From positions 1 to 25,428 of IMG/VR virus record IMGVR_UViG_3300009678_000131: a stretch of DNA of 25,428 bases. One strand, written 5' to 3'. The position numbers and the translations under genes are program-made. Positions 5,138-24,655 of the stretch are shown here, in pieces; position 1 is the first letter of the stretch; each line of letters opens with the position of its first letter. The notes under the pieces were generated by a model. The model was not told the DNA's origin. It searched no databases and saw only the letters and a program-made list of their open reading frames with translations. This stretch comes from a virus. Its lineage: Duplodnaviria; Caudoviricetes.

Positions 5138-5748
5138 GCACAGACACCGACCTTGCCAACCAAGCCCTAGCACTTATCGGACAAGACTCCGTGCCGTCGC
5201 TGTTGACCTCTCTAAACAACAAGACGGTGGTGGCAATCAACGCGCACCTGGCAAACACCAAGGAGCAAGTCCTAAGAATGCGCGACTGGAATTGTGCGCG
5301 GCGCCGGGCAACTTTGTCGCTTACCGCCAACAATGAAAGCCTCGGCGAGTGGACTTATGCTTACCGCACACCATCGGACTGCCTAGCGGTGCGCCGACTT
5401 ATCTGTTTCCCGTACACCAATCAGCGCCATGTCTTTTCCTGGGAAGTGGACAGCGAAGGCAAGCGCGTTCTTTACTGCCACCTAGAGAATGCCGCCATCA
5501 TTTACCAAGCCAACATTACCGACGTGAACAGGTGGGACCGGCTGCTATTCAATGCGTGTGCGGCGCTCTTGGCGTCACGGCTTGCCGCCTCGTTCGGCAA
5601 GGATGTCAAGATGGCGGAGAAGTTCCTGATGGACGCTTACCGCGAGTTCGATGAAGCCGTGGGCGTGGACGAGGGCGAAGGCAACCGCGAGATAGAGGTG
5701 TCGACTGACTTTATCGACGTGCGGAATGGTGGTTATGGCAATTACTGA
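5134..5748 (+). CDS. Tail tubular protein A / head-tail adaptor (T7 gp11-like)
   Basis: DLANQALALIG…EQVLRMRDWNCARRRATL…WTYAYRTPSDCL…LLASRLA pattern; ~200 aa; directly upstream of the nozzle gene. Confidence 0.8.
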   Translation: MSTDTDLANQALALIGQDSVPSLLTSLNNKTVVAINAHLANTKEQVLRMRDWNCARRRATLSLTANNESLGEWTYAYRTPSDCLAVRRLICFPYTNQRHVFSWEVDSEGKRVLYCHLENAAIIYQANITDVNRWDRLLFNACAALLASRLAASFGKDVKMAEKFLMDAYREFDEAVGVDEGEGNREIEVSTDFIDVRNGGYGNY

Positions 5749-8700: not shown

Positions 8701-9362
8701 TGTATTGTTGCGGTACGACCAGTGGAGTCACAAGGCTTTACAAGATCAACCGCACTACTGGCGCGTTAGTTGAGTCGCTCATAATTACCTCTTTGGAGGT
8801 GGTATGGTTGGCGGTGGCAAACGACGCACTTATTTATCTCTTTGCTCCTGGCATTCCGGCAGTCGTTTACTACATCAAGAACTTCAGCGAGATCGTCTAC
8901 GTCGGGCAAATGTCAGGCGCAGGTTTTAGTCCGTCCGGTTCTGGCACGGCAATCTGGAATAACGGGACCCTGTATTTTGGCGCCGATGGCGATTCGGGAT
9001 TCACGACCGATGTGCACAAGGTAGCAATCGCCTGTCCTACTGATTTGACGGCTCCCATCCTTGCCTCGGTGCTGACCGATCCAACCGTGGTTGCCGGGGC
9101 TGATATTACCGTCGATTGGGTCAGCGTGCTTGAGCCAAACGCCAGCGATAAGATTTACATATTCACCGAACCGGCGGCGGGTGTTTATGGGTGGACTGAT
9201 GGCGAAGTGGCGGTGACGAATCAGCTTATCACGTCGGCGATCGGCACCGGCACGATGGACATTACCATTCCCGGCGGCACGACACCGGGCAGCTACGTCG
9301 CCATCTACGTTACGAGTAACAATAAATGGGTGGTGACTAGCGCGCCTTTCACGGTGACATGA
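5748..9362 (+). CDS. Tail tubular protein B / nozzle (T7 gp12/P22 gp10-like) with a long C-terminal extension
   Basis: GEVSPRFEAR…ACRILRNW…GGVKRREG N-terminus; QSADVMYI, GYPVCGCFFQSRMW, FQQEPDSIVWLVRNDG, AWSTH, HLEGATVRVIGDG and QTLPFPAEV motifs typical of podovirus nozzles. Confidence 0.85.
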   Translation: MAFNVSRINFALNVGEVSPRFEARQDKTEKYSSACRILRNWLPVTMGGVKRREGFAYSAKAKYSGLENADVRLIDFRFSSTQAYMLEFGDFYVRFFKDGVPLMDPVNPAIPHELVTPFGIADLDLIKIGSFQSADVMYICTGIYPVQKLARIAVSPDEFTLSAVSFNPPATHADTPLGTEIGSGTLTLSAVTGDGINITAANACWLDGDVGRTLVSGAGRAVITTFTSANILVADVVSDFVSTTILEDEWHFEGFGAIAVDPTNRLAGQGVGLDAGNNIFRATDVDKYMTIYGGLIKLTAYINGAKMNGIILNTLIDVPNDPASGLPYGDPPSTTVWGIEHESWTDILGYPVCGCFFQSRMWLCKGMTINGSVTGDFENFSKGANADDAIQRTIDDDQVNPIRWIKAVRSLQVGTGGSAYEVTASTPGKALSPSDFNVLPISSRGSANIPPTRIGGQLIHVQFGQKKIRELVFDFVTDKFRSPSLVMLAEHLTENKFLMDVAFQQEPDSIVWLVRNDGMLLALTYQEDENVIAWSTHPTTGEVTSVACIPRPTTGKDWLWASIERDINGVTETFIEHMEPDAAVNREWASLQTDCASLAVPDANLLITGADHLEGATVRVIGDGMLFSDAVVTGGQFTLEPAIAVAQVEYGLDYESEGLTCEPFIPPEQGGMFMCRRWKALGMRVRRAGPGLTLNVDDSADVGLAILRPDHPMDAAIPLQEGKLCTEQTNYNPFCRVSFKQTLPFPAEVMNIVGDLEIGTEWCCETVDENPDFELLDLGGGGAEPEVCNDLTFRGQQSIINTVAFDQEATFGGGNLRTSWGYISDGELWSLIGQAGCDGGNMAYTATCVQINHYVDDVPTLDSGAAPSMPDAAAPFSNAMVGTSDVPVWVGNSNAYGGLRIYYDNGINYVEYATPSVNGGGRTVATYLVDGNEVWTINGGGMDGGPPQTELSRFNKATGVKLNAYYPFNNDEVLVFNLQCTTDYLYCCGTTSGVTRLYKINRTTGALVESLIITSLEVVWLAVANDALIYLFAPGIPAVVYYIKNFSEIVYVGQMSGAGFSPSGSGTAIWNNGTLYFGADGDSGFTTDVHKVAIACPTDLTAPILASVLTDPTVVAGADITVDWVSVLEPNASDKIYIFTEPAAGVYGWTDGEVAVTNQLITSAIGTGTMDITIPGGTTPGSYVAIYVTSNNKWVVTSAPFTVT

Positions 9363-9894: not shown

Positions 9895-10508
9895 CTGGCA
9901 TATTGGAGTTTTTCGGCTATGAGGCTGGCGCTTCGGCAGCGGCTTCATCGGCTGCATCCTCGGCGGCTACTTCAGCAGCAACCATGGCGGCAGAGAACGC
10001 TGCACTGGCTCAAGCTGGCTCAACGGCGGGGTCAGTAACAGCGGCGGGGCAATCGGCAGCGGCAGCACAAACAGCAGGCATCACCGCAGGCCAGGCACTC
10101 CAATACGCCTACCAGGGCGCTACCCTACTCCAAGGCGTGAGCGGCTACGCTTCCGGCAATACCAACGCTGCCTATCTGAAAGAAGCTGGTAGGCAAGCCA
10201 AGATGGTAGGCGCCGCCAACAAGAACCTATCGGATGCCAGGGGGCGCGCTCAACTTGGCGAGATACGCGCACAGGTGGGAGCGCAGGGCACGACCTTCTC
10301 CGGCTCGCCCATGTTGGTCTATTTGGACAGCGTTAAAAACGCGGCTATCGAGTCGCAAATGGAATATTACAAAGGCGAGATAGGCGCCACCGGCTACAAA
10401 GAGCAGGCAAGGGTGGCAAGACGCGGCGGTGAATCTGACCTTTGGAGCGGCATTATCGGTGCGTCGGCACCGGCTATGAAAAGTCTAGGATCGAGGTTAC
10501 TCGCATGA
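9891..10508 (+). CDS. Small internal virion / DNA ejection protein (T7 gp14-like)
   Basis: Ala/Gly/Gln-rich, helical; RAQVGAQGTTFSGSPMLVYLDS motif; gene order; ATGA overlaps at both ends. Confidence 0.7.
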   Translation: MTGILEFFGYEAGASAAASSAASSAATSAATMAAENAALAQAGSTAGSVTAAGQSAAAAQTAGITAGQALQYAYQGATLLQGVSGYASGNTNAAYLKEAGRQAKMVGAANKNLSDARGRAQLGEIRAQVGAQGTTFSGSPMLVYLDSVKNAAIESQMEYYKGEIGATGYKEQARVARRGGESDLWSGIIGASAPAMKSLGSRLLA

Positions 10509-11221
10509 TTCAGTCTGCTTTCACTCCCGACTACTACGTCGGCACCGGCTTACTGACTGACTACGCCTTCACGTTTAGGATACTCAGGAAAGCCGACATA
10601 CTGGTACAGACCAAGACCAGCGGCGGCACCGTCACTGACTTGGTACTCGATACCGACTACACCATTGCCAACGCCTATGTGAATAACCCGGCGGGCGGGC
10701 AGCTAGTCCTGGCGACAGCCTTGGAAAGCGGCACGGAGTTGTTTCTCACCCGGCAGACCGCCTTGACTCAGCTAGTCCATCTCGAAGAAGGGGCGCCGAT
10801 ACCATCATCGGTATTCGAGGAAGTATTCGACCGGCTTACCATGATGGCCCAGGAATTGACGTACTTAGCGCGTAAGGCGCTTCACTTCCCGACGACTTCA
10901 ACCGTGGTCGACATCACTGTGGAAGACCCCGAGGCTGGACAGATACTCAGGTGGAATACCGCTGAAACCATGGTCACAAACGTCTTGGCTTCAGCCTTGG
11001 CAATAACTCATACCGTGGTCGATGTGGTCTTAGCGCCGGCTGATATTTCAGCGGTGGTGACGCATGGACTCAATGACAGTAACGCCAAGATTATCGGTTT
11101 TAGCTCGACGTTTCACACGGCGTTTAAGGTGGTCAGTCAAACGGCCAATGACATTACCGTTGGCTTGACCGACGAGGCGCCGGCGGCTGGCGGTACTCTG
11201 ACCTTTGAGGTTGCAATCTAG
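10505..11221 (+). CDS. Short tail-fibre anchor/adaptor (T7 gp17 N-terminal-like domain plus a small C-terminal beta domain), 238 aa
   Basis: YVGTG…YAFTFRIL…LVLDTDYTI…LFLTRQTALTQ…EEVFDRLTMMAQEL is the typical podovirus fibre N-terminal anchor. ATG at 10505 overlaps the previous stop. Confidence 0.8.
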   Translation: MIQSAFTPDYYVGTGLLTDYAFTFRILRKADILVQTKTSGGTVTDLVLDTDYTIANAYVNNPAGGQLVLATALESGTELFLTRQTALTQLVHLEEGAPIPSSVFEEVFDRLTMMAQELTYLARKALHFPTTSTVVDITVEDPEAGQILRWNTAETMVTNVLASALAITHTVVDVVLAPADISAVVTHGLNDSNAKIIGFSSTFHTAFKVVSQTANDITVGLTDEAPAAGGTLTFEVAI

Positions 11222-11234: not shown

Positions 11235-13076
11235 ATCGCCGATCTACCGAGAATTTACGCGACTCCTAATATCCCGTTCTCCGGGCCGATGGCTAGGACT
11301 ACGCCGGATGACTTCGGCGCGGGGGTGTGGGGTACGCTTGCCCGCGTCACCGAAGGGATGCGCCAGAAGCAGCTACCGATTGAAGCGGCACAGATGGAGT
11401 CGCAGTACAACATCGCCGTAAACGACTTGAAGAATAAAGTCATGGCGGAGAATGCCGACCCGCTTACCTGGCGCTCCACATTTCAAGCCGAAGAAGCGGC
11501 GCTGCGCAAGCAGATGTCCGATGGTATCCAAGACAAGGAAATTCAAAGCGTCTTTAACTTCCAGTCGGCGCGTAGCTACGACAACCATATCATCGACATC
11601 AGCACAGCGGGAATAAAGGCAAGCCATAACCGCCAACAGATAGGCGTCAAGGCAGAGTTGAAAGACATCGCCATACAGTACGGCGGGGCGCAGACCAATA
11701 AAGAGCAAGCCGAGTTGATGGCGAAGGCTAGCGGTCTGCTGTTAAGCGCGTCGACTCCGCTCGATGCCGGCGGGCAGCCTATCCCGTCCACTTACACACG
11801 TGAGGAAGCGGTGGCGATGCACCAGGAGTTTTTAAGGGATGCCGACAAAGAGCGGGTAAGCTGGATGGCTGAGCGCACGCCGGCGCAACTTATTGAGGCT
11901 CTTAAAGACCCCAAGCAATTCCCGACACTAGACGCCTCGGCGCGTAACACTGCCAGGGGAAGGGCGCAAGAGTCAATGAACTTGATGCGCATTGGCGCGG
12001 AGCGGGCGGAACAGCAGCGCATTGACAATCTCAACAGGGACATCATCGTTGCCAGCGCGGCGGATAACGTCAACCTGTTTGCCTTGCGCGAGACGGTATT
12101 CAAGAACGCCGGGGCGTTAGACTTCAAGTCACTTAACCATTGGAAAACCGTATTCGACTCGGCAATTAAGGCGCAGCAGAGCGGCGAGGACTCGCCATTC
12201 TTCAAGTCTCAAGGCGACGTGCTTGCCCATGTAATGAAGGGTGTCTTGGAGGCACCGGAGAAGTGGAGCACCACGGATATTACTCAGTATATTGGCAGGG
12301 GATTATCGGCAAAGGATGCCGAGTCTATTGAGGGGTTGCGCGAGCGGCGGTTAAAAGAAGGCGGCGATGGTCGCATGACGCCAATGGCGCAAGCGCGGTC
12401 ATCATGGGATGAGCAGCGCAAAATGGGCGCGTTTCTCAATGCCGAGGAATTAGTAATCTTTAGAAACAAGGACAAGGACCAGATAGGTCAAGCGGCGATG
12501 GTTGCCGAGAATGACCGGCGAGCGCAAGCTGTACTAGATAGAATGGTACTGGCAGAGAAGAACAAAATAGACCCGCGCAAAGCGTTACAGACCGAGATGC
12601 AGCCGTTTTACAATGAGACTGTCACGACATGGGGACAGAGATGGATGCCGTTTAGTGGTGTTGGTATGTTCGAGTACACCCGACCCAAGACACCGCAAGA
12701 GATACGCGATGCGCAAGGCCGCGCATTCACCGGTCAAGACCCCACCAAGCCAGGACCACCTGGGCCGGGGGCTAAGACGCTTACCGTTCCCGACTTGGCC
12801 GTCTTGGTGCCGAAGGTCAAGCAGTTTTTTAAGTCTACGTTCAATAAGGAGTTGCCGGTAAGCGCACAAGGGCAGAGCGGCACGCACGACAAATTGAAAT
12901 TCGACCATACGCGCTCAATGGATGTTTCCCTAAGTCCAACGACTAAAGAGGGCCAGGTACTAATGGCATGGCTCGACACTCAAGGGATACCGTTCATTGC
13001 ATACGATAGGGCGGTGCCTGGGCAATCCACCGGACCGCATATTCATATCGGTAATCCGTCGCCACGGGCAAGGTAA
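11235..13076 (+). CDS. Internal virion / ejection protein (gp15-like) with a C-terminal putative Zn-metallopeptidase domain; start uncertain (ATC 11235, TTG 11205 or ATG 11289)
   Basis: LPRIY N-terminus, a helical Ala/Gln/Glu-rich body, a Pro/Gly linker, then …GTH…DHTRSMDV…STGPHIHIG. Confidence 0.7.
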   Translation: MADLPRIYATPNIPFSGPMARTTPDDFGAGVWGTLARVTEGMRQKQLPIEAAQMESQYNIAVNDLKNKVMAENADPLTWRSTFQAEEAALRKQMSDGIQDKEIQSVFNFQSARSYDNHIIDISTAGIKASHNRQQIGVKAELKDIAIQYGGAQTNKEQAELMAKASGLLLSASTPLDAGGQPIPSTYTREEAVAMHQEFLRDADKERVSWMAERTPAQLIEALKDPKQFPTLDASARNTARGRAQESMNLMRIGAERAEQQRIDNLNRDIIVASAADNVNLFALRETVFKNAGALDFKSLNHWKTVFDSAIKAQQSGEDSPFFKSQGDVLAHVMKGVLEAPEKWSTTDITQYIGRGLSAKDAESIEGLRERRLKEGGDGRMTPMAQARSSWDEQRKMGAFLNAEELVIFRNKDKDQIGQAAMVAENDRRAQAVLDRMVLAEKNKIDPRKALQTEMQPFYNETVTTWGQRWMPFSGVGMFEYTRPKTPQEIRDAQGRAFTGQDPTKPGPPGPGAKTLTVPDLAVLVPKVKQFFKSTFNKELPVSAQGQSGTHDKLKFDHTRSMDVSLSPTTKEGQVLMAWLDTQGIPFIAYDRAVPGQSTGPHIHIGNPSPRAR

Positions 13077-16000
13077 TGGAAAACACGCCTTTACAACAAA
13101 TTGACCTAAGCACCGTCTTTAACGACGGCGACAGTAATCCTAGCGCATGGACCGGGCAGCGTGCGCAACCGCGTTTCCCTATTCTTGAGATGAATCAACC
13201 ATCGCCAGCAGTCGACGCGCCGCCGATGGTGTTGGGCGATTGGGAGAAAATCAAGAGAGCGAAGGCTATATCAGCGACATTCGACCTCCCGTTTGGCATG
13301 GCCTATGACGGTGAGGAAACATTCACCGCCGAGTTGAACAAGCAGAATCCAAGTTGGACCAGCGAGATAGGCAAGTCCATTATGCGCAGCACCGGGAACC
13401 AGTATACAAATCTCGGTCATGCGATGGAGTTGATAGGCTACAGCAAAGAGCAAGCCGATGTATACCGTATCTACGGGCGCCAGCTTGCCAACTCCTATAA
13501 TCCAACAGTGGCGGTGAACGATGTTACATGGAAGCGTTTCATATCGCCGGAATGGTTATCGACGGTAGCCGTCGAGGGTGTCACATCGTCATTATCGCTT
13601 GTACCAGCAGCCATTGTTGCCGGGTATGCAGGCTTAACCACTGCCGGTGCCTTGGGTTTGGGGATGTTTGGCAAAATAGTGTTGACGGGGTTATTCGGCG
13701 GTCTAATTACGGGACCGATTGAAGCAGCTTTCGAGGCGGGTCAGACCGTGGAGGAAGCGCGGCGCAAGGGACTACCGGAAGATGAAGTGCAGCGCCAGGC
13801 TGAATATGTTTTCAACAACAACTTGAAACTACTTATCGGTTCAAACGCCGCGCAAATCGGTGCAATGATAACGCCGATGGGCAAGATGATAAGCGCGGTT
13901 GCCCCGACCGTCATGGCGCAAAGGATAGCAGCATCCTCGATAGTCCGTAGCGCGTTAGGCGCGGCAAAGATAGGCGCAGCTGGAGCTATTGAACCGGGTG
14001 AAGAAGCCACGCAGACAGCCTTTCAACAGGTCGCCGCCGAGGGTGGCACGGTCATGGACAAGCTGAGGCGTTTCAACCCGGAGATGCAGGACGCGGTAGT
14101 GCTGGCAACCGTCATGGGCTTAGGAATGCAGGGCGCCGGCAGCGTGTTTACCGGCGTGACCGATAGGGTTGTCGACACCATGAAGGAAGGATTACGCGCC
14201 GAGTATGACGCGCAGGTGCAAGCCGGGTTGACTGCCGGCATGGATGAGCATGATGCTACGGTCAGTGCGTTAGACACCATCGCCGCCACACCCGAGGGCG
14301 AAGCGCATATAGACCAAGTGACCAAGGAAATGAAAGACTTGGCCGAGGGCAAGCCACCGCCGCAACCGACACAAGAGGAAATTCAAAAAGCGGTAGACGA
14401 CTACATTGCCGAGCAAGAAGATGTTGCCGACATTATCCCGCAGGGCGATATTGACGCGCTGGTAAACGAGCAGACCATGGAGGCGGTTGCCAGCGGTGCC
14501 ACTTCGGTTGATGAGTTACTAAGCGATGAGCCGACGATAACGGTAGAGGAAACGGCACCAGTACAAAACTTCATTATCTCCGAAGAAACCTACCAAGCCG
14601 CATTGGCATCCCTCAAGGAAAAGACTACCGGCTTACACGCTGGCGTTGATCCATTTGTATTGGGCGACCTTGTAAAGATAGGCGCATATCATATCGAGCG
14701 CGGCATCCGCACTTTTGCCGAGTGGTCCAATGCCATGATTGACCGCTTCGGTGAGTGGGTTAAGCCTCACCTAGATAACATATGGAACCAGTCTATCGAC
14801 ATGGTGGGCGCCGGTATACCGTCCGGTGTCGACCTGGGCGAAGAAGCATTGGCGGAGACAAAGGCAGTCGAAGGCGCCAAGATGCCGGCCAAGGATGTCA
14901 AGGCGCAGGTCAGACTCACCACCGGGCAGAAGCGCATTGTCAAAACTATCCGTGAGGACGAGGCGTTGCACGGCGCAATGAAGATGGCAGAGCGCATGGC
15001 TAAAGAAGCCTATGCCGCGGGTAACAAAGATGGCGTCAAGGCGGCGATGGCTGACATGCAAGAGATTGTCATCAAGGCCAAGGTGAAAGCCGAAGGGTTT
15101 GGTTTTAGAGAAGGATTCAAGCTAGGCGAGCGTTTGACTAACCGCGAGTTGACGGTTGCCTATAAAGCCAAGGAAGAAGAACGGCTTGCCACCGCCAAGG
15201 CTCTTATCAAGATGATCCATGAGTCCGATATTCCCGCCACCATGAAGGGCAAGTATCTCGAAGCGTTGGCCGGCAAACTCACCCATAAGCGCGTCAACGA
15301 CATCATGGACCGTATCAACGCGGCTAGTGAACTCGCTACCCGCCAGGAAATAGTCGACGACTTGGTTAACTTTAAGTCGCACATGGGGAGAATAGACGTT
15401 GACTACCAAAAGCGCATCACCGAGTTACTAGAGGACATCAACCTAAAGAAGATAGGGCCAAAGACCCGCGAGCGGTTGTTATCGCTGGCGGCATTCGCTG
15501 AGAGAAACGGGATGCCGTCCGGTGTGAGTCCGAAGATGCTGGCCGACATTGAACGGCTGGAGATGCGCCAGCCCGAGGATATGAGTATCCAGGACTTGAA
15601 AGACTTGCGCGACATGGCCGAGCATCTATTCGAGCTAGGCAAACTCAAGCGTAAGTTATGGACCAAGTATAACCAACGTATGCGCGAGAAGGCGATAGCC
15701 GAAGCCGTGGCATCGACTCACAACCTTGACGCCGCCACCTCCGGCAAAGAGGGCATGTGGCAAGCGACCAAGGGCGGGATGCTGACAGGCTATTTGAATA
15801 TTTTGTCGCCAATGCGTGTTGGTAGGCTTGTCGACGGCTCTAAAGCCGAACGGGGTTGGAACTATCTGGCAGTCAGGCAAATGGTGGCGAAGGCAACCGA
15901 GGCGGAATGGCAGCACCATGCGCGTCTTGCTGAAGTCATGGAAGAAGCCGACCGTCTAGGTTTTAAGACCATGGACTTGAGCGATGAGAACCTTGGCAGG

Positions 16001-17623
16001 ATAGTCGCCAATATCCGTATCCTCGAAGGCTCGCCTATGGCAGCGCAAACTATTATGGAAAGGTTTGGCTGGACCTCGTTGGCGCCACTGACACAGCAGG
16101 AAATGCGCTTAGTCGAAGCGTTGGAGAAAAGCACCAACGAGCGTGTCGCGGAAGTGGCGGCATTATGGGAAGAACGCCACAACGTGCCATTCGTCAAACG
16201 AGACCGCTATATCCTACCGCTGTATTACGAGGGTGAGTTCAACACCGGCATCGAGGACGTAGCCGACCCGCACGAGAAAACCAACGTGCCGCAGGGCTTC
16301 GGCATTGAGCGCGTCGAGGGTGTGACCAAGCCCCCGCGCATTGACCTATGGAGTATGTTGGAGCAGGCGCTCGCCGAGCAAGAATGGTTCTTGGAAGTCC
16401 AGCCGGAAATAGACAACATCAAGCGTGTGGTAAAGTCCAAGGAATACGTTGCCCAAGCCGGGCAATCGGTGTCGACTTGGTGGACCGCTTATCTGGATAT
16501 TGTTGCGCGTCATGGCATCTCGGCTGGTGCGGCGGCATCGCGGCGTAGTATGCCGGGAGTCCATCAGTTTCTAAAGGGCGCCCGCAACAACATGACGACC
16601 GGCGTGCTAGGGCTTCGCCCATCGACTATCCTTGTCCAGCCGTTGGCGCTATTTCAAACCTTAGCTTATATGAGCGCGGAGTATGGACCGGCAACAGCGG
16701 GCGAAGCATTGTCCGAGTTCGCTAAAACCTGGGTGTCGACAAGTCACTTCAACAAAATAGTCGAAGCCTCTCACTCCCTGCAAATGCGGGCTGGCGGCGA
16801 AGTCGCCTTGGCTGAGTTGCTGCAAGATTCACCCGCCACTACCAGACTCAACAAGTTCAAACGGGCGGCGATGAAGTTAATACAAAAGCCGGACATGCGA
16901 ACCACCGCCGGCACGCAACAAGCAATCGAGAACATTCTCAATAAACGCGGCGTTGAAAACGCTCACCTAGAAGCTGAAACCGTTACCTTGATGGTAGCCG
17001 CAAGTTCCGATGTGGCATCCCGACCGCTGATATTCTCCCGCGGCGAGACGGCGAAAACCTTCCTGACGTTCCAGACATTTATGGTCAACAGCTTTGGCTT
17101 AACAACTTACGATATTGTCAAACGTGGTGTCATTGACGGCACGGCGAAGAAGAAGATAGGCGCATTGATAGCCGTTGGCTTTCTCATTGCCGGTAGAGCG
17201 TCGGATAATGAAGTAAGAGAGTTTCTTTACGAGCTAACATTCAGGCGTAACCGTCAGGAAAACCGCTGGCCGGGTTGGGTGAAAGCCATATTCGGGCTGG
17301 CATCCGACGTGCCATTCTTCGGCAATGTCTTTAATATAGTGGCCGCTCACGGCGGCAGTTCGGAGATACCAATTCAGAAGATGCTAAACGACACCATCCG
17401 GGACAGCATCGGCGCGTTGGGCGCCTATACCAAGGCGCCGGGTACCCAGGAGTTATCGGCAGAGGAAAAGCGGCGTAAGCTGGCACAAGCGGCATTCCAA
17501 GCCGTCAAGGTAGGTGCGGTTATTGGCAAGGGTATTCCCGGCACGGCATTCGGACTCGATACTCTTGAGGGTGTTATGTTTCCCGCTAAGGAAAAGAGCG
17601 GCAGAGGGGAAAGAAGACGATGA
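13076..17623 (+). CDS. Large internal virion / ejection protein (gp16-like), 1515 aa
   Basis: Size, gene order and helical composition; Gly/Ala hydrophobic segments near the N-terminus and TFLTFQTF…IGALIAVGFLIAG near the C-terminus; TAATG/ATGA coupling. Confidence 0.75.
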   Translation: MENTPLQQIDLSTVFNDGDSNPSAWTGQRAQPRFPILEMNQPSPAVDAPPMVLGDWEKIKRAKAISATFDLPFGMAYDGEETFTAELNKQNPSWTSEIGKSIMRSTGNQYTNLGHAMELIGYSKEQADVYRIYGRQLANSYNPTVAVNDVTWKRFISPEWLSTVAVEGVTSSLSLVPAAIVAGYAGLTTAGALGLGMFGKIVLTGLFGGLITGPIEAAFEAGQTVEEARRKGLPEDEVQRQAEYVFNNNLKLLIGSNAAQIGAMITPMGKMISAVAPTVMAQRIAASSIVRSALGAAKIGAAGAIEPGEEATQTAFQQVAAEGGTVMDKLRRFNPEMQDAVVLATVMGLGMQGAGSVFTGVTDRVVDTMKEGLRAEYDAQVQAGLTAGMDEHDATVSALDTIAATPEGEAHIDQVTKEMKDLAEGKPPPQPTQEEIQKAVDDYIAEQEDVADIIPQGDIDALVNEQTMEAVASGATSVDELLSDEPTITVEETAPVQNFIISEETYQAALASLKEKTTGLHAGVDPFVLGDLVKIGAYHIERGIRTFAEWSNAMIDRFGEWVKPHLDNIWNQSIDMVGAGIPSGVDLGEEALAETKAVEGAKMPAKDVKAQVRLTTGQKRIVKTIREDEALHGAMKMAERMAKEAYAAGNKDGVKAAMADMQEIVIKAKVKAEGFGFREGFKLGERLTNRELTVAYKAKEEERLATAKALIKMIHESDIPATMKGKYLEALAGKLTHKRVNDIMDRINAASELATRQEIVDDLVNFKSHMGRIDVDYQKRITELLEDINLKKIGPKTRERLLSLAAFAERNGMPSGVSPKMLADIERLEMRQPEDMSIQDLKDLRDMAEHLFELGKLKRKLWTKYNQRMREKAIAEAVASTHNLDAATSGKEGMWQATKGGMLTGYLNILSPMRVGRLVDGSKAERGWNYLAVRQMVAKATEAEWQHHARLAEVMEEADRLGFKTMDLSDENLGRIVANIRILEGSPMAAQTIMERFGWTSLAPLTQQEMRLVEALEKSTNERVAEVAALWEERHNVPFVKRDRYILPLYYEGEFNTGIEDVADPHEKTNVPQGFGIERVEGVTKPPRIDLWSMLEQALAEQEWFLEVQPEIDNIKRVVKSKEYVAQAGQSVSTWWTAYLDIVARHGISAGAAASRRSMPGVHQFLKGARNNMTTGVLGLRPSTILVQPLALFQTLAYMSAEYGPATAGEALSEFAKTWVSTSHFNKIVEASHSLQMRAGGEVALAELLQDSPATTRLNKFKRAAMKLIQKPDMRTTAGTQQAIENILNKRGVENAHLEAETVTLMVAASSDVASRPLIFSRGETAKTFLTFQTFMVNSFGLTTYDIVKRGVIDGTAKKKIGALIAVGFLIAGRASDNEVREFLYELTFRRNRQENRWPGWVKAIFGLASDVPFFGNVFNIVAAHGGSSEIPIQKMLNDTIRDSIGALGAYTKAPGTQELSAEEKRRKLAQAAFQAVKVGAVIGKGIPGTAFGLDTLEGVMFPAKEKSGRGERRR

Positions 17624-19413
17624 AAAAACTCCTACTCCTACTATTCCTGCTTATCGCCTCCCCGGCGTTTGCCACCTACTACACGCGCACCGACTGCGGC
17701 ACGGTGGTCGGACCGGAAGAGGGTGATGTCTGCACGCAAACCACAACGGTCAGCGGGCGCACCTCGGGGCACCTTTACATTTACCGCTCGGCGGCATGGG
17801 TGGACGTGGACACCAGCGGCTCAGGCTCTCCAACGACGGCGACTTATCTTACTCAGACCCCCGACGCCGGGCTAGACAATGAACAGGCCATGTCTACCCT
17901 AGCCACCGGCATCGTCAAGAACCAGACCGGCACCGGCGTCCAGTCCATTGCCGCAGCGGGCACCGACTATGTGGCACCGACCGGCTCAGGCGCCGGGCTG
18001 ACCGCCTTAAACGCTTCACAACTTACCACCGGCACGGCAGCGGCAGCGCGGCTAGGCTCGGGTACACCGGACGCCACCAATTACCTACGCGGTGACAATA
18101 CCTGGCAAGCCATTACCACAGTGCCGGCATTGTCGGCTAATGGCGTCAACTGCTCGGCTGGAAGTGCGCCTCTTGGGGTGGATGCGGCGGGCGCAGTGGA
18201 GGGCTGTTTCGACGTAACGACTCAGACCGAAATGAATACGCATACCGCGCTTACCGGCACCGGGGCGCATGGGGCGACGACCACCAACACGGCAAGCCAG
18301 ATAGTCGCCAGGGATGGCAGCGGTAACTTTGCCGCCGGCACCATCACGGCGGCGCTGACTGGCAATGTCACCGGCAACGTAAGCGGCAATGCGGCGACGG
18401 CTACCACCTCAAGCGCACTGGCAGCGGCGGGATGGATACCTCCGCTTGTTACCGTGGCTACGCTTCCGGTTACGCCAGTGGACGGCCAAGAAGTGACCGT
18501 CACCGATGCGCTGGCGACGACCGATTGCGAAGTAGGCGGGGGCACTTACCGCAATCGCTGCGTGTGGAATCAGGGCGGTGGGACATGGGACTTGGCGCTA
18601 TCGGGCGTAAGTGGCGCAACGACACCGACCCTCGAAACCGTAATGACGGCGGGCAACACCACCACCAAATGCACCGAAGCCGACCCTTGTGAGTTTGGTA
18701 ATGGAACGGTGGCAATTAAAATCTATGTTACCGACGCTAACCAGATGGTGATAGAGCCGAGTGTTGCGGCTGACCGTTACTTCACTTGCATGACCAACCA
18801 AGTCTGCGGGTTTTACGATACCGAAGGAGCGGCGGCGATACTGACCATTGACCCCGACGCGGCATCACAGTTAGGTAAGTACACTTTCGGCACCGCCTAC
18901 AAGCCGACCAAGACCGTAGACTTCCCGGCGGCATCACTGACCACGGACACAGCGCAATGCGCATCACCGGCGCTGGCAACCATCAATAGCGGCGCTCCAA
19001 GGTACACCATCATCTGCACTGATAACGATGCGTCCAGCATCTACGGCGAAGCCGTCATGCCTAAGTCATGGGACGGCGGCACCGTGACCTTCGCGCACCG
19101 CTACGTCCAGACAGCGGCGGATACCGGCGTGTTAAACGGCGACATAGCGGCATCGTGCAGACTGGCAGCGGCTACCATCAACAACACTTGGGGAACCGAG
19201 ATAGCGATAGACGATGCGGCGGTGACGGGTAGCAACGCCATCGACATCACCACCAGCGCAGCCGTCACACCTAACGGCACTTGCACGGCGGGCACATCAA
19301 GACTGTTGCAATTTCGCTATCAGCTTGACGCGGCAGGCACTACAACGGCGGTGGCTACGCTGCACCACCTTGGGTTTACGATGGAATACAGCGTCACCAG
19401 CTTGAGCGACTAA
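17620..19413 (+). CDS. Tail-fibre-like protein with an N-terminal Sec-type signal peptide and 14 Cys
   Basis: MKKLLLLLFLLIASPAFA|; fibre shaft motifs TATYLTQT…EQAMSTLATGIVKN…AAGTDY, LNASQLTTGT…RLGSGT…YLRGDNTW and NTASQIVARDGSGNFAAGTITA; C-terminal MPKSWDGGTVTF domain. Confidence 0.75.
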   Translation: MKKLLLLLFLLIASPAFATYYTRTDCGTVVGPEEGDVCTQTTTVSGRTSGHLYIYRSAAWVDVDTSGSGSPTTATYLTQTPDAGLDNEQAMSTLATGIVKNQTGTGVQSIAAAGTDYVAPTGSGAGLTALNASQLTTGTAAAARLGSGTPDATNYLRGDNTWQAITTVPALSANGVNCSAGSAPLGVDAAGAVEGCFDVTTQTEMNTHTALTGTGAHGATTTNTASQIVARDGSGNFAAGTITAALTGNVTGNVSGNAATATTSSALAAAGWIPPLVTVATLPVTPVDGQEVTVTDALATTDCEVGGGTYRNRCVWNQGGGTWDLALSGVSGATTPTLETVMTAGNTTTKCTEADPCEFGNGTVAIKIYVTDANQMVIEPSVAADRYFTCMTNQVCGFYDTEGAAAILTIDPDAASQLGKYTFGTAYKPTKTVDFPAASLTTDTAQCASPALATINSGAPRYTIICTDNDASSIYGEAVMPKSWDGGTVTFAHRYVQTAADTGVLNGDIAASCRLAAATINNTWGTEIAIDDAAVTGSNAIDITTSAAVTPNGTCTAGTSRLLQFRYQLDAAGTTTAVATLHHLGFTMEYSVTSLSD

Positions 19414-20402
19414 TGAAACCTATACTTGCCGCACTTCTATCGTTATTGCTCGCTTGTCCTGCGTATGCCTTTCGCTTCGAGGTCGGCATGTACAGCGGCA
19501 GCGGCGCTGACGACCGCAACATCTCCACGGTGGCGTCGTTTGCCATATCCGCCTTGATGATAAAATGCGACGGCGCGACACACGCAACGATGAAAACGTC
19601 GTCCATAGCGGGCGATGGAGCAGATGATTTAGGGGGTGGTGGTGGCATCACCACTAATAAGATTCAGTCTATTGGCACCGGCACGTTCCAAGTCGGGACA
19701 AGCACCACAACCAATGTCAGCGGCACCGACAATTGCTTTTACGTTGCTTGGGGCGCCGATGCCAACAACGATCTGGCGGTGGGAACTTACGTTGGCGACG
19801 GTATAGACACCCGCGATATTGTCATCAGTCCGGCATTTCAACCGGGCGCGGTTATAATTTTAAGTGAGTCCGATAATGCAAATACATGGCGTGTTAGCGC
19901 CATGTCAGGTGAGGGTGATTCATCGCTCCGTTTTGCCGCATCGCCAACTGCTGCTAATTTAATTCAAGCACTTAACGCCGACGGCTTCGAGATAGGCACC
20001 GATGTTATTGTCAACGACGCCACGGGCGGCACCGTCGATTATTATCCGCTGTCCGTCAAGGATGTTACCAATTACACGGCATCGGGAACTTATACCGCCG
20101 GGGGATCACCCTCCGATGGGCTTGAAATCACGGTCGGTTTTCAACCTGACCTCGTTATTGTCAAAAGCGACACCAACGCTGGCGTAGGCATCTTCCGCAC
20201 TTCCGCCATGACCGGCGATTTCGCTTGTCCTATAACCAACGTCGCGTGCAATACAAATTTCATCCAAAGTTTCACGGCCACCGGATTCACTATCGGCACC
20301 AGCGCCAGCGTGCAAAGCGCGGGTGTCAAATACTGGTGGTACGCAATCAAGACTCCAGTATATTCAACGGCGCGACCTGTATCGCCAATAATGTTCCAGT
20401 AG
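19413..20402 (+). CDS. Signal-peptide protein with three GxYxGxG…(GFQPDLVIVK)-type phage structural repeats
   Basis: MKPILAALLSLLLACPAYA|; repeats VGMYSGSG, VGTYVGDG…AFQPGAVII and SGTYTAGG…GFQPDLVIVK, each followed by a G[TF]-x-[VI]GT-like strand. Confidence 0.7.
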   Translation: MKPILAALLSLLLACPAYAFRFEVGMYSGSGADDRNISTVASFAISALMIKCDGATHATMKTSSIAGDGADDLGGGGGITTNKIQSIGTGTFQVGTSTTTNVSGTDNCFYVAWGADANNDLAVGTYVGDGIDTRDIVISPAFQPGAVIILSESDNANTWRVSAMSGEGDSSLRFAASPTAANLIQALNADGFEIGTDVIVNDATGGTVDYYPLSVKDVTNYTASGTYTAGGSPSDGLEITVGFQPDLVIVKSDTNAGVGIFRTSAMTGDFACPITNVACNTNFIQSFTATGFTIGTSASVQSAGVKYWWYAIKTPVYSTARPVSPIMFQ

Positions 20403-20412
20403 TGAGGTAACT

Positions 20413-22575
20413 ATGAAACTACTTGCAATTCTCTTTGTGCTACTTGCCAGCCAAGCCGAGGCGGCAACTTACTGGATTTCACGCTCCGGCAACGACGCCA
20501 ATGCGTGCTTCGCCTCAGTTGCCAAGCCGACCGTAGCGACTCAGGCGAAAAGGTCTATCGCCGCCGGAATTGGGTGTCTTGCCGGTGGCGATACTCTCAT
20601 GGTCGAAGAAGGCACATACACCGAAGTGGTTACGGTCGGATCGGTCCAAGTTGTGATGTCGGGAAGTGCAATTCCATCCGGCCCATCTACATCGCAAAAA
20701 ACCACTATTAGGTGTGAAAACCTATACCCTTTGGCAGCGGCAACGCAGACCCATCCCGGTTGCGTGATTCGACCTGTCGCCGGTGGAGATTATATTGTTT
20801 ATTTTTCAGGCGTGACTCGATCCAACATAGTCTTTGATTCATTCAAAATTGACAACACTGTCAACATTGCTACGCAATCCCATGTTTCGAGAATCACTGG
20901 CGCGACCTGCACCAACTGCGAATGGCGCAATTTTACAGCCGTCAATACGGGCAGCATGACAAATGGCGGTAGCGCGTTTACGTCAAGCAGTGACAGTGCT
21001 TTTTGTGATAATGCCGTTATAGAAGGCTGGTGGATTAGTAGTTGGGAAGAATTTGGTGGCGATGGGGCTGGCACTCACGGCATCTACAGCCATTGCAATA
21101 ACGCCACAATTCGCGGGAATCGAATAGAAAACGTTCATGGACTAGGCATACAATACTATAGTTCTACTGGTGTCGTATTTTCAGGTGGGTTAATCGAAAA
21201 CAATTTTGTAAAAAGTGTTGGGCGTCGAGGGATATATGTTGGGAACAGCAACACTGGTGGCGCGATTGTTCAACGAAATATTGTTGTCGATGCTGGCAAC
21301 TCCACTGAAAATCCCGGCATAACAACTGCGAGCGATCCAACGGGGGCAGGAATTAGCGTATCTAGTTCCTTCAAGGTCTATAACAATGTTGTTGTAAACA
21401 ACCGGCATTCTGGAATTTATTGTGGCAGTTGCACAAATACTAAAAACAATATTGCCCTAGGCAACGCATCAGGAGCCGGGTCACAAATTACAACTCCGGG
21501 TGCGACAAATCTTGTAACCGGCACACAAACTAATATCTTTGTTGATCCAACAGGTTACGACTTCAACTTAAAAGAAGGCAGTGTCGCCATAGATGGCGGC
21601 ACCCCCATCGCTGGGCTAACCTATGTTGGTGCAAACCCCGACCAGGGGGCTTACGAGGCGTGCGTGCGCAACAAAGCCGTCGTCGAGAACGACGAGCCGA
21701 CGCATTATCACATTGCCTACGATTGCCCCGTCCAATCGACGAAAAACGGCGTGACGTTGCAAACACCGACCGTGGGGAATTGGGCTATTGTTGTGGCCGG
21801 CGTATCCAAGACTCTAGGCAACGGCGGGCTGGTCAGCGCGGCTATCAGTGGTCTATCGACCGTCGAAGTGGTCTTGGCTTCAGCCGTCACCAACGGGCAA
21901 AGCCTAACCGACGCCATGACGCGCTCGGCAAGTCCTACCCTGACCGATAGCTTCGCCATCGGCGGGGTATATGCCAAGGTGCGTACTTACGCAGCGTCAA
22001 GCGGCACAAACAACGTGGGGGCTGGGGTGAGTCATGCAGTGGTGCAGTCCCGCTATCAGTTTTTCAAGCTACGAGGCGCGGCTAATACGGTGGTCACGCA
22101 ATGCGCTACCTGCGCCGAGAACGTGCCCATCACCCTGCCACCGGGCGCGGCATTCCGCTTGCGCATCAAGTTTCGCAGCGACGATACCGTTGGCAGCGTC
22201 TATAACCTGCGGTATGCGAAAGACGGCGGCGCCTACACGCTGACACCGGACGCCTTCGGTGCTGACTTCATCTCATGGCACGGCATCACCGCAGACACCG
22301 ACATTGTGGCAGCAGGCACGGCGACCACGGAAATACTCACCAGCGACGAGGCAAGCGATACCGCTTGTGCCGTGATACGCACTAGCAGCGACTATCCAAG
22401 CATCGCCTTAAACAACTCCGAGACGGAATGTGAGTATGTGCTGAAGATAAGCACCTCGGCTCCGGTTGGCACGACCTATGACTTTAGGGTATACGACGGG
22501 AGCGGGGCGGCTATCGACACCTACACCAACACACCACGGCTGACCGTCGGCCCATACACCATGATGGAGTCGTGA
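20413..22575 (+). CDS. Signal-peptide right-handed beta-helix protein with C-terminal beta-sandwich domains and 16 Cys; putative tailspike/depolymerase
   Basis: GAGGT SD; MKLLAILFVLLASQAEA|ATYWIS…GND…LAGGDTLMVEEGTY cap, HGIY/GNRI/YNNVV repeats and FVDP…FNLKEGSVAIDGG…PDQGAYE, followed by two further beta domains. Confidence 0.75.
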   Translation: MKLLAILFVLLASQAEAATYWISRSGNDANACFASVAKPTVATQAKRSIAAGIGCLAGGDTLMVEEGTYTEVVTVGSVQVVMSGSAIPSGPSTSQKTTIRCENLYPLAAATQTHPGCVIRPVAGGDYIVYFSGVTRSNIVFDSFKIDNTVNIATQSHVSRITGATCTNCEWRNFTAVNTGSMTNGGSAFTSSSDSAFCDNAVIEGWWISSWEEFGGDGAGTHGIYSHCNNATIRGNRIENVHGLGIQYYSSTGVVFSGGLIENNFVKSVGRRGIYVGNSNTGGAIVQRNIVVDAGNSTENPGITTASDPTGAGISVSSSFKVYNNVVVNNRHSGIYCGSCTNTKNNIALGNASGAGSQITTPGATNLVTGTQTNIFVDPTGYDFNLKEGSVAIDGGTPIAGLTYVGANPDQGAYEACVRNKAVVENDEPTHYHIAYDCPVQSTKNGVTLQTPTVGNWAIVVAGVSKTLGNGGLVSAAISGLSTVEVVLASAVTNGQSLTDAMTRSASPTLTDSFAIGGVYAKVRTYAASSGTNNVGAGVSHAVVQSRYQFFKLRGAANTVVTQCATCAENVPITLPPGAAFRLRIKFRSDDTVGSVYNLRYAKDGGAYTLTPDAFGADFISWHGITADTDIVAAGTATTEILTSDEASDTACAVIRTSSDYPSIALNNSETECEYVLKISTSAPVGTTYDFRVYDGSGAAIDTYTNTPRLTVGPYTMMES

Positions 22576-22695: not shown

Positions 22696-23004
22696 ATGGC
22701 TGAAGCAATGCACACAGACGGCGTGGAAATATCCGCTTTAGGCGGTACTCTGCGCATGTTTGGCGGCAATGCGCTATTCTTCTTTTTGCTGTTACTGCTT
22801 GGACTCAACATCGCCCTGACAGTTTGGGAGCACACGCAGAGAAGTACCGAACACGACCATATTATGTGTGCGAGCAAACTCAGCATTTACATTTACACGA
22901 CGCCGAAGGGGGCGCCTATCGATTGGGATAGACTGCCCGTCGATACGTTCGGTTGTATTCCTAAGTTCTTATTCGACCGGCCTGCTTTGCCGAGAGGTGG
23001 ATGA
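22696..23004 (+). CDS. Single-pass membrane protein (holin/antiholin candidate)
   Basis: TM segment ALFFFLLLLLGLNIALTVW; C-terminal domain with 2 Cys; lysis-region context. Confidence 0.6.
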   Translation: MAEAMHTDGVEISALGGTLRMFGGNALFFFLLLLLGLNIALTVWEHTQRSTEHDHIMCASKLSIYIYTTPKGAPIDWDRLPVDTFGCIPKFLFDRPALPRGG

Positions 23005-23357
23005 TGTTTAGCTTATTTGCCGCTGAAATAGGGACCAGCCCGGAACCCGTAATTAACGCTGTGTTAGCGGCGCTCGAAGCGCAGCGCAGTGCGTTTCTGA
23101 CCAACTGGCTGCTGGTGACGCTGATAGTCGTTGCAGCCATGGTTGCGGTAGGTGTCGGATTTGTCATGGCCGCAGTCAACCAGATACGCGAGCACACCAA
23201 CGGAATGCACACGGCGCTGGTGGACGCAACTCGCAAGCTCGCGCTTATCGAAGGTGAGGTAAAGGGCAGGGCGGAACAAAAGACAGCGGATACAGCAGAG
23301 GCAAAAATAGAGGAAGGAATTCTTGAGGGAACTCTCCAAATGAAAGGGGCAAAGTGA
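23001..23357 (+). CDS. Membrane protein with a charged C-terminal helix (holin-like candidate)
   Basis: GAGAGG SD and ATGA overlap; TM WLLVTLIVVAAMVAVGVGFVMAAV followed by IREHTNGMHTALVDAT…EG…GRAE. Confidence 0.6.
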   Translation: MMFSLFAAEIGTSPEPVINAVLAALEAQRSAFLTNWLLVTLIVVAAMVAVGVGFVMAAVNQIREHTNGMHTALVDATRKLALIEGEVKGRAEQKTADTAEAKIEEGILEGTLQMKGAK

Positions 23358-23557
23358 TGGGTGCAATTCTAGGTTTTCTAATTTGGCTGGCGATTGCCGC
23401 CATCGTTATTTACGTTGTGATATGGGCTATCAGTACCATCGTCGGACCACCGGCCAAGGTCGTGCAGTTGCTCTACGTCATCGGCGTGCTGCTCTTGCTG
23501 TACTATTGTGTGATGTACTTCCCGGCTGGCTCGTTGCCAGGCTTTCCACCGAGGTAG
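23357..23557 (+). CDS. Small two-TM membrane protein (holin candidate)
   Basis: Two hydrophobic helices joined by GPPAK; TGATG coupling (GTG 23354 also possible). Confidence 0.7.
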   Translation: MGAILGFLIWLAIAAIVIYVVIWAISTIVGPPAKVVQLLYVIGVLLLLYYCVMYFPAGSLPGFPPR

Positions 23558-23558
23558 G

Positions 23559-23763
23559 ATGCCTCTCACAGCAGACGCCTCGCCCTTCGGGCTTGTGGCA
23601 AGCGACCGACACCACTCCATTTGCCATGAGATCCCGGGTTGTTGTGCGGGGGGACCATGTACGGGGGGTATTAGGGGGGTAATTCTTGAACGCTGTCAAG
23701 TATTTTGTTGGGTAGTACCTCCCAAAAGGAAAGTAAGTATCTAAAAGATACCATGCCTCTCAC
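23559..23763. repeat. 11-bp direct repeat ATGCCTCTCAC (23559-23569 and 23753-23763) flanking three G6 runs and an imperfect palindrome
   Basis: Read directly: G6 at 23648-53, 23663-68 and 23674-79; AATTCTTGA-N6-TCAAGTATT at 23681-23704. Confidence 0.7.
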
Positions 23764-23908
23764 CGACCAGCTTTATTACACTGTAGTCGGCTACTGGTAT
23801 CTTTATTTCGATACTCACATGGCGCTTATCGTGCTATTGTTTGTCGTGGTGGTGGTGGTCTTTGTGGTGATGCTCTGTCGCATGGCGCGAAGGGAAGCCG
23901 ATGACTAA
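23753..23908 (+). CDS. Small single-TM membrane protein
   Basis: ALIVLLFVVVVVVFVVMLC followed by basic RMARR; overlaps the lipoprotein start; start codon uncertain. Confidence 0.5.
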   Translation: MPLTDQLYYTVVGYWYLYFDTHMALIVLLFVVVVVVFVVMLCRMARREADD

Positions 23909-24182
23909 ACCCTGGCTTGAAAACCTGCTCCTTCTAGCGGCGCTGCTTATCATCGTGGCGTTTTTGCCGGGCTGCACCGGCATGTTGATAGGCAACGCGT
24001 TAGGGCAAGGGCAGTCGCTGACACCGGAGCAGGTGGCCGAGTTCCGCAAGCAAAACCAAAAGGTCTATTCGTGTACGCAGGTGTCAGGTCCCCCGCCTTC
24101 AGGCATGGCTATATGGCTTGTCTTGCCGGCGGAGAGTCCGTTTAACCCAAAGTTTGCCGATGGGTGCCGGCTAGTCCAATGA
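23901..24182 (+). CDS. Small lipoprotein (o-spanin-like or accessory lysis/exclusion lipoprotein)
   Basis: Hydrophobic leader ending in lipobox-like LPG|C; two further Cys and a Pro-rich mature part; directly upstream of the endolysin. Confidence 0.65.
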   Translation: MTKPWLENLLLLAALLIIVAFLPGCTGMLIGNALGQGQSLTPEQVAEFRKQNQKVYSCTQVSGPPPSGMAIWLVLPAESPFNPKFADGCRLVQ

Positions 24183-24655
24183 CCCTCTTCGACCGTGCCT
24201 TCGAGATAGTCATCGGCCACGAGGGCAGTCTAAGCAACAATTCCGTCGACCCCGGCGGACTCACCAAGTACGGCATCAGCCAGCGCAGCTACCCCGACGA
24301 GGACATTGCCGGGCTTACCCTGGACAGGGCCAAAGACCTCTTTTATGTGGATTACTGGCTACCCTTGCAGGCATTCGAGCTACCCGACGACATCGCCATT
24401 ATGCTATTCGATATGGCCGTCAATATGGGCCGTGGAAACGCCGTGGTTTGCCTACAGCGTGCGGTAGGGGTGAAAGACGATGGTTTGCTTGGGCCCGTCA
24501 CCAGGGCTGCGTTAAAAGCCAAATACGGCCCGCAGCTATTGGAGGAAGTCACCGTCGAGCGGGTGATGTACTACACCAGTCTTGAGACTTTCAAAACCTT
24601 TGGCTTGGGCTGGGTGCGTCGGTCAATCCGGCTGCTCGGGCAGCTTACTTCCTAA
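24179..24655 (+). CDS. Endolysin, glycoside hydrolase family 108, with a C-terminal peptidoglycan-binding region
   Basis: FDRAF…GHEG…DPGGLTKYGISQRSYP…LT…A…DYW…FDMAVNMG…LQRAVGVKDDGLLGPVT…FGLGWVRR; ATG at 24179 overlaps the previous TGA. Confidence 0.9.
   Translation: MTLFDRAFEIVIGHEGSLSNNSVDPGGLTKYGISQRSYPDEDIAGLTLDRAKDLFYVDYWLPLQAFELPDDIAIMLFDMAVNMGRGNAVVCLQRAVGVKDDGLLGPVTRAALKAKYGPQLLEEVTVERVMYYTSLETFKTFGLGWVRRSIRLLGQLTS

Follow-up and report, generated by a model that had tools for sequence, protein, structure and literature searches.

Consecutive genes with predicted Sec leaders in a podovirus-type structural operon encode candidate exported host-recognition proteins

It is taught that tailed phages make and attach every part of the particle in the cytoplasm. 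Phages of the K1-5 (gp37) and Klebsiella KP32 type possess a short gp17-type anchor on which separately encoded receptor-binding parts dock, with a beta-helix protein as partner, and these receptor-binding parts have no leader and are synthesised in the cytoplasm. Here we analyse a 25,428-nt (25.4-kb) stretch of DNA, hereinafter the window, which is the entire IMG/VR virus record IMGVR_UViG_3300009678_000131 (Duplodnaviria; Caudoviricetes) and contains three consecutive genes, A, B and C (Table 1), whose products, unlike the outer parts of the K1-5/KP32 type, carry predicted Sec leaders and paired cysteines. Judging from the sequence, we consider it probable that A-C are exported, disulfide-folded host-recognition parts that are added to the completed particle at lysis or later via a non-exported tail stub. 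Our literature search, which covered sources other than subscription journals and supplements, did not reveal any report of tailed phages whose virion parts are exported.

Consecutive leader-bearing genes resembling the A-C arrangement are present in cultured tailed phages, namely, Cellulophaga phages phi18:3 (gp085-087; KC821620) and phi10:1 (gp091-094; KC821618), where the products are annotated as structural from tandem mass spectrometry (MS/MS); leaders are found in 7 of the 20 MS/MS-annotated structural proteins of these two phages (32 translated). However, homology of the Cellulophaga proteins to A-C was not detected, their cysteine counts are 0-3, leaders go unmentioned in the records and contamination is possible. 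The MAT proteins of Bdellovibrio are leader-bearing, phage-fibre-like and surface-displayed (PMC10769870), sharing with A-C the signal peptide, fibre-like stalks, variable sugar-binding tips and, in some cases, disulfides. MAT fibres are bacterial and cell-displayed, with a conserved ~130-aa beta-rich domain after the leader, and 13 of 21 end in S74, whereas A-C are encoded in a phage structural operon and show no S74 match. The structural study of RcGTA describes a head spike in which the jelly-roll base Rcc01079 binds a terminal peptide of the fibre Rcc01080 (PMC7296036), similar to what we propose for A and B, that is, a jelly roll holding the product of the next gene by a short terminal hydrophobic peptide. 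In RcGTA, however, the peptide is N-terminal and sits on a pentamer, whereas the candidate tag described here is C-terminal, and the likeness to the A head is at the level of the fold, by analogy. Finally, filamentous phage coat proteins use the host secretion machinery, but these phages are described as membrane-assembled, non-lytic and tail-less (PMC4823517), in contrast to the lytic tailed particle considered here.

The three gene starts assigned in the initial annotation stand: A overlaps the stop of the gp16-like gene (ATGA), B overlaps A (TAATG) and C has a GAGGT Shine-Dalgarno sequence ending 4 nt 5' of its ATG, and the genes are translationally coupled to the structural operon. The basic n-region, hydrophobic core and AxA site described at each start were likewise recovered with our own heuristic, a home-made rule requiring a basic n-region, a strong core and an AxA site; the uncharged 8-mers of the three leaders have a Kyte-Doolittle hydropathy of 2.8-3.8. 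Cleavage is predicted after residues 18 (A), 19 (B) and 17 (C), leaving the mature N-termini TYYTRT, FRFEVG and ATYWIS. Among the 20 window open reading frames (ORFs) scored, A, B and C alone obey the rule, and given that its strict version was positive for 16 of 2940 internal control windows, three leaders in a row are not attributable to chance. Conservation of the signal peptide in homologues, which the export claim called for, was found for all three types. Under the strict rule, leaders are present in 40 of the best 48 A homologues and in 62 of the 120 listed out of 196 found; the eight misses among the best 48 include one truncated protein, one leaderless protein and six with a hydrophobic leader by eye. 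A homologues retain the leader even where their heads fall to 25% identity, which is a stronger point than the correlation between leaders and cysteines discussed below. Leaders are present in all six aligned relatives of B (by eye), and in three B relatives, the leaders are 58-63% identical with the n/h/AxA grammar kept, compared to 83-88% identity of the mature parts. Of the 27 proteins with the last domain of C, 13 pass the strict rule and most of the others have a hydrophobic leader minus the basic residue. No membrane anchor, lipobox or beta-barrel was found in the sequences of A-C or in the models of A and C, and the highest 19-residue hydropathy downstream of the leader is 1.3-1.7. Taken at the level of sequence, Sec export of A, B and C appears very likely.

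The predicted mature chains contain even numbers of cysteines (14 in A, 4 in B and 16 in C). The leaderless anchor and the proteins that we take to occupy the gp14, gp15 and gp16 positions of the T7 nomenclature are Cys-free, and a leaderless beta-helix protein encoded at 602-2926 has two cysteines in 774 aa. The leaderless nozzle, however, contains 21 Cys; therefore, cysteines alone are no proof of export. Across 61 de-duplicated loci with an A-type head (11 others were removed as duplicates or truncated; individual loci are denoted by L numbers), leaders are present in 37, with a median of four head cysteines in leader-bearing versus one in leaderless proteins. Heads with all four cysteines had a strict leader in 36 cases and none called in 9, versus 4 and 57, respectively, for heads with at most one. 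Cys 513 and 555 co-vary, with both present in 48 heads, only one or the other in 6 and 2, and neither in 61 (n=117). In a quick tree of the heads, 34 leader-bearing rows and one mis-started row form a well-supported clade, and a second, Cys-poor gain of the leader is apparent in L048, L056 and L057, so that the p-values of 1e-9 for the cysteine-leader association were rejected as independent evidence. A sulfotransferase gene lies directly 3' of the Cys-poor leader-bearing A-head fibres (L048:10494-11123, Pfam E 2e-16 for L048; also L054, L056 and L057).

The candidate attachment point for A is the leaderless anchor, one of a group of related proteins, 196-240 aa in length, that carry a small C-domain. 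As claimed initially, the gp17-type anchor is encoded separately from A-C, all 14 PHROG matches being confined to this gene, and the A chain carries no tail anchor. A six-frame search covered 61 A-head loci that extend 5 kb or more upstream; the first module of A and the anchor C-domain were found together in five loci, two of which are near kin, the module alone in none, the C-domain alone in one, where the A module has diverged (E 4e-6), and neither in 55. The C-domain is always leaderless, be it on the anchor (window, L172), as repeats in a 250-aa protein (L020), on a 300-aa protein (L092, L093) or alone (72 aa, L095), and its gene is located just upstream of A in L020, L092, L095 and L172. 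L012, with a head sister to that of the window, has neither the module nor the C-domain; in L050 and L104, the A module is present and the upstream DNA is shorter than 1.2 kb. No Pfam family matched this docking candidate. By genomic co-occurrence, the locus thus displays the hallmark of a branched anchor/adaptor, that is, a short anchor with an extra domain that tracks a partner module.

A separate scan yielded 84 anchors, none with a leader of its own. A large leader-bearing gene was present in the loci of 7 of 11 complete short anchors versus 4 of 64 long anchors; leaving out near-copies as well as two loci where downstream DNA is scarce, a hand count of the short anchors gave 5 of 6. The anticipated co-occurrence with a stand-alone adaptor is seen for short anchors but is not universal, as the cassette is found also without a gp17-type tail. 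In 5 of 150 homologues, the leader is fused directly to a tail anchor (excluding a sixth, false-positive call), and the leader on the anchor modules of relatives takes the place of the initiator Met of the leaderless forms. The sole anchor seen between the nozzle and the operon end in L078 carries a leader; here (L078:10001-16266), the anchor is followed by an A-type gene, another gene, which starts with what is presumably a twin-arginine-like motif, and a leader-bearing beta-helix. In unrelated podoviruses (L174, L229 and L232), anchors of 161-244 aa are immediately followed by one to four large leader-bearing genes.

The phage fibre motifs reported in A are present at aa 130-162 and 228-244, the latter matching cyanomyophage 'structural protein/fiber' genes (80-90% over 30 aa); among cultured phages, homology of A is limited to this 30-aa motif, and no homologues of B and C were found. 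The single-chain model of A (predicted local distance difference test, pLDDT, 64) features a small sheet (37-62), beta modules spanning 290-410 and a head modelled with confidence, with pLDDT below 50 for the stalk (65-275). The head is similar to 3zm8 (Z 11.9, root-mean-square deviation (rmsd) 2.9, 124 aligned) and matches CBM35, CBM36 and CBM6 modules, and its viral matches include tail fibre and spike proteins. Thus, A combines the stalk motifs and the distal, predicted receptor-binding fold of a gp17-type fibre. Sequence searches revealed no solved structural relatives for A or B, and Pfam and NCBIfam name no family for A, B, the anchor C-domain or the A modules. The first module of A, ~45 aa long, varies among homologues, and the A-type head occurs also on leaderless proteins within phage structural regions. 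A-family matches are rare in cell genomes (5 loci in a scan of species genomes; samples of genomes gave 2 of 401 and 1 of 301); those of leader-bearing forms are labelled Proteobacteria, Dehalococcoidia and Nitrospira and are possibly mis-binned phage contigs. One 207-aa gene consisting of leader and head only (L113:9848-10471) is found on a 210-kb contig in what appears to be an integrated element of small size, alongside genes recognized by eye as primase- and integrase-like.

B matches the tail fiber family PHROG 24898 (E 1e-14) and resembles DUF7483 (PF24299) phage proteins, to judge by Atlas features (0.91, 19 of 30 matches), whereas Pfam gave no match at E 0.1. In the six aligned B relatives, the four mature cysteines are invariant, unlike Cys15 within the leader. 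The 23 proteins encoded in the second slot fall into nine unrelated groups, yet many of the proteins end in an R..P-hydrophobic peptide. With a pattern written after this first set had been viewed, the peptide was detected in 16 of 37 loci with leaders, 0 of 21 without leaders and 1 of 611 other ORFs. A subsequent set of metagenome loci gave 9 of 20, 0 of 31 and 0 of 197, respectively, with groups assigned by eye and some near-copies included. Genes following leaderless A-type heads (L128-L161) start with MxxFGYxxxGFG in 15 of 30 hand-picked loci. Both motifs would fit a role of the A-type head in holding a terminal peptide, located at the C-end where the N-end is a leader.

The beta-helix of C begins at residue 18 in a model of pLDDT 76, and the protein matches the Pfam Beta_helix profile with E 1e-5, slightly short of the curated cut-off. 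The helix is closest to PL9 lyases (Pel9A, 1ru4, E 3.6e-9, Z 26.8; rhamnogalacturonan lyase, 5olq, Z 29.8, rmsd 2.8, 328 aligned), alginate epimerases and the adhesin PfbA, with phage tailspikes scoring lower. For these lyases as well as for the CBM35, CBM6 and CBM36 relatives of the A head, sequence identity is 7-18% and the likeness is one of predicted fold only. The label 'tailspike-like' suits C only loosely, given the lack of an N-terminal particle-binding domain and the greater proximity to cell-type PL9 and epimerase helices; with the helix starting right after the leader, C was rejected as a classical tailspike. The last domain of C is retained in 27 proteins with widely diverged helices and is similar to stand-alone phage proteins (template modelling (TM) score 0.73-0.81).

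Table 1. Positions of genes and predicted features in the window
Feature	Coordinates	Strand	Description
gp16-position gene	13076..17623	+	Large, internal-virion-like; stop overlaps A start; named by position
Short tail protein	10505..11221	+	238 aa, leaderless, Cys-free; gp17-type anchor (~aa 1-130) and C-domain (aa 165-237), candidate socket for A
Gene A	17620..19413	+	597 aa; leader and two-Cys N-terminal module, then fibre stalk and jelly-roll head (CBM35/CBM6-like)
Predicted Sec signal peptide of A	17620..17673	+	18 aa, AFA site; home-made signal-peptide rule
A N-terminal module	17677..17808	+	aa 20-63; candidate partner of anchor C-domain, from co-occurrence
A head domain	18904..19398	+	aa 429-593; predicted jelly roll; Cys 447, 466, 513, 555
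Gene B	19413..20402	+	329 aa; 19-aa leader, DUF7483-like body, four invariant Cys
C-terminal peptide of B	20367..20399	+	R..P-hydrophobic motif common to unrelated same-slot proteins; candidate docking tag
Gene C	20413..22575	+	720 aa; 17-aa leader, right-handed beta-helix (18-414), two all-beta domains, 16 Cys
C-terminal domain of C	22030..22548	+	aa 540-712; common to 27 C-type proteins; candidate attachment domain
Lysis region	22696..24655	+	Small membrane proteins, lipobox protein (23901-24182), GH108 endolysin (24179-24655)

The order of an A-type gene, a second gene of 220-430 aa and a C-type gene recurs in diverse settings. The cassette is located after capsid genes in L015, L016, L018, L022 and L046, between the terminase or portal and the capsid genes in L032 and L042, and within a GTA-like (gene transfer agent) tail module in L012. 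In L003, it follows a lambda-J-like gene, and the first gene has the A stalk module without the A head, whereas A-type genes with other followers are found after J-like genes in L030, L038 and L073. Given these varied positions, the cassette does not depend on a particular tail type, and a general requirement for a gp17 adaptor was rejected. Of the earlier interpretation, the export part is well supported by conserved leaders and paired cysteines; the joining of the particle through the stand-alone anchor is what we infer for this locus, with indirect support from the module/C-domain co-occurrence and from the large leader-bearing genes near short anchors, and the adaptor link is local, not general, because the cassette occurs also in phages without a gp17-type tail and with other N-terminal modules of A. 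An identical copy of the cassette is present on an 87.9-kb contig (L088), about twice the estimated genome size, which may be a prophage or a doubled assembly. Three consecutive small leader-bearing genes were observed in a phage with a leaderless B-like protein (L008:2384-3961, minus strand).

In the route that we propose, A-C would be expressed late, exported by Sec and cleaved at the AxA sites, followed by oxidative folding in the periplasm, and the 238-aa anchor would be built onto the tail in the cytoplasm. Upon failure of the inner membrane, the first module of A would bind the anchor C-domain, B would attach by its C-terminal peptide, probably to the jelly-roll head of A, and C by its C-terminal domain, so that adhesin and depolymerase would form one branched complex. 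An exchange of the N-terminal module of A would let other phages plug this cassette on elsewhere.

Several observations weigh against this route. The cysteine-leader link represents about one or two independent events, 4 of 5 leader-bearing anchors are not Cys-rich, the module/C-domain co-occurrence rests on about four independent settings and the peptide pattern was first defined post hoc. In L024, L033 and L039, the cassette follows leaderless anchor fibres (431-460 aa). The C helix scores Z 20-26 with phage proteins, below cell-type enzymes, and the last domain of C is similar also to parts of bacterial proteins. Moreover, the occurrence of the cassette at head, portal and tail positions alike also fits a mobile late-operon passenger. 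Such an exported cassette would never join the particle but, in a Lom- or MAT-like manner, would coat or condition the envelope, block receptors or be released as a decoy or adhesin. In addition to the position-independence of the cassette, this alternative is favoured by leader-bearing head-only versions of 207-214 aa (L029, L074 and L113), one of them apparently outside a structural operon, by the MAT precedent (PMC10769870), with Bd2133 being a weak Foldseek match of A (E 3e-4), and by Lom of lambda, which is described as a leader-bearing passenger between tail genes (PMC12309495). Furthermore, MS/MS can detect envelope proteins, as in the case of Bor and Lom in phi24B preparations, called contaminants in a preprint (10.64898/2026.04.10.717836). 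However, Lom is an outer-membrane beta-barrel, whereas A-C are predicted to be soluble proteins of fibre, lectin-like and beta-helix type, which lack the membrane anchor and the barrel or lipobox of Lom/Bor-type envelope passengers (B being judged from sequence only). Tracking of a leaderless domain on the tail anchor by the A module would be needless for a cell-surface protein, and the rarity of the A-family in cell genomes as well as the fusion of leaders to tail anchors in relatives also argue against this explanation, which we regard as rather unlikely.

It is less likely still that only A and B join the particle, with C acting free in the periplasm or after release as a polysaccharide lyase/epimerase-like enzyme aiding the escape of progeny from capsule or biofilm. 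C indeed lacks an N-terminal particle-binding domain, its helix is similar to those of cell-type PL9 enzymes, epimerases and PfbA, and the leader-bearing pectate lyase gp095 of phi10:1 has no MS/MS note, unlike its four neighbours; yet, retention of the C-terminal domain despite divergence of the helix and its match to stand-alone phage proteins are as expected of an attachment domain. Finally, the leaders could be unused for export, acting as uncleaved tethers or structural helices or being bypassed by downstream starts, with the usual cytoplasmic assembly. The leader call comes from a home-made heuristic alone and alternative in-frame starts exist, but the starts are fixed by overlaps and the Shine-Dalgarno sequence, the leader grammar is kept in the three B relatives and leaders replace the initiator Met of leaderless anchor modules, making this possibility highly improbable. 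Assembly of exported A-C onto the particle at or after lysis remains our preferred explanation.

Besides the anchor and the GH108 endolysin, the podovirus-type structural module of the window includes tail tubular protein A (PHROG 394), the nozzle (PHROG 376) and internal virion proteins. A longer record, identical to the window, adds the major capsid gene (PHROG 3437) upstream, reaching 32.4 kb and a rated completeness of 75%. Because the lipobox protein precedes the endolysin, the lysis region suggests a two-membrane host; in a close relative, the GH108 endolysin is replaced by a different 131-aa gene (L013:16342-16737). Promoter and terminator scans of the window yielded counts close to chance, leaving a separate transcription unit for A-C unsupported, and no RNA record was listed for these genes. 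In the head-decoration slot (602-3606), the leaderless beta-helix gene is paired with one for a 226-aa protein, reminiscent of C and the second-slot types; the close relative G003 has kept the cassette and is missing this pair. The 509-aa protein encoded at 3608-5137 has many LEAGSY-type repeats, is ~400 aa long in G003 and has no convincing family. The leaderless nozzle (5748-9362) carries a ~430-aa C-terminal extension that varies among relatives.

Whether the locus exemplifies a widespread group of tailed phages with two-compartment assembly is, in our view, an evenly balanced question. Such phages would make the capsid, the tail and a bare socket inside the cytoplasm, whereas an exchangeable A-B-C kit for host recognition, locked by disulfides, would form in the periplasm. 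Only at lysis would both come together, via a portable socket/module pair and a C-terminal tag, and a single plug change would suffice to move the kit between podovirus, siphovirus and head positions. The folds of the parts are already known; what is new is the route, which depends on the virion attachment that we infer. The candidate interfaces are small (a 73-aa socket with a 44-aa module and an 11-aa tag) and testable as purified fragments, phage culture being unnecessary. If the proposal is correct, genes of this kind are being wrongly assigned by annotation pipelines to secreted host proteins or accessory functions, adhesins stabilised by disulfides and secreted enzymes of host type would become available to phages, and the morphogenesis of tailed phages would gain a Sec-dependent branch with a lysis-tied step.

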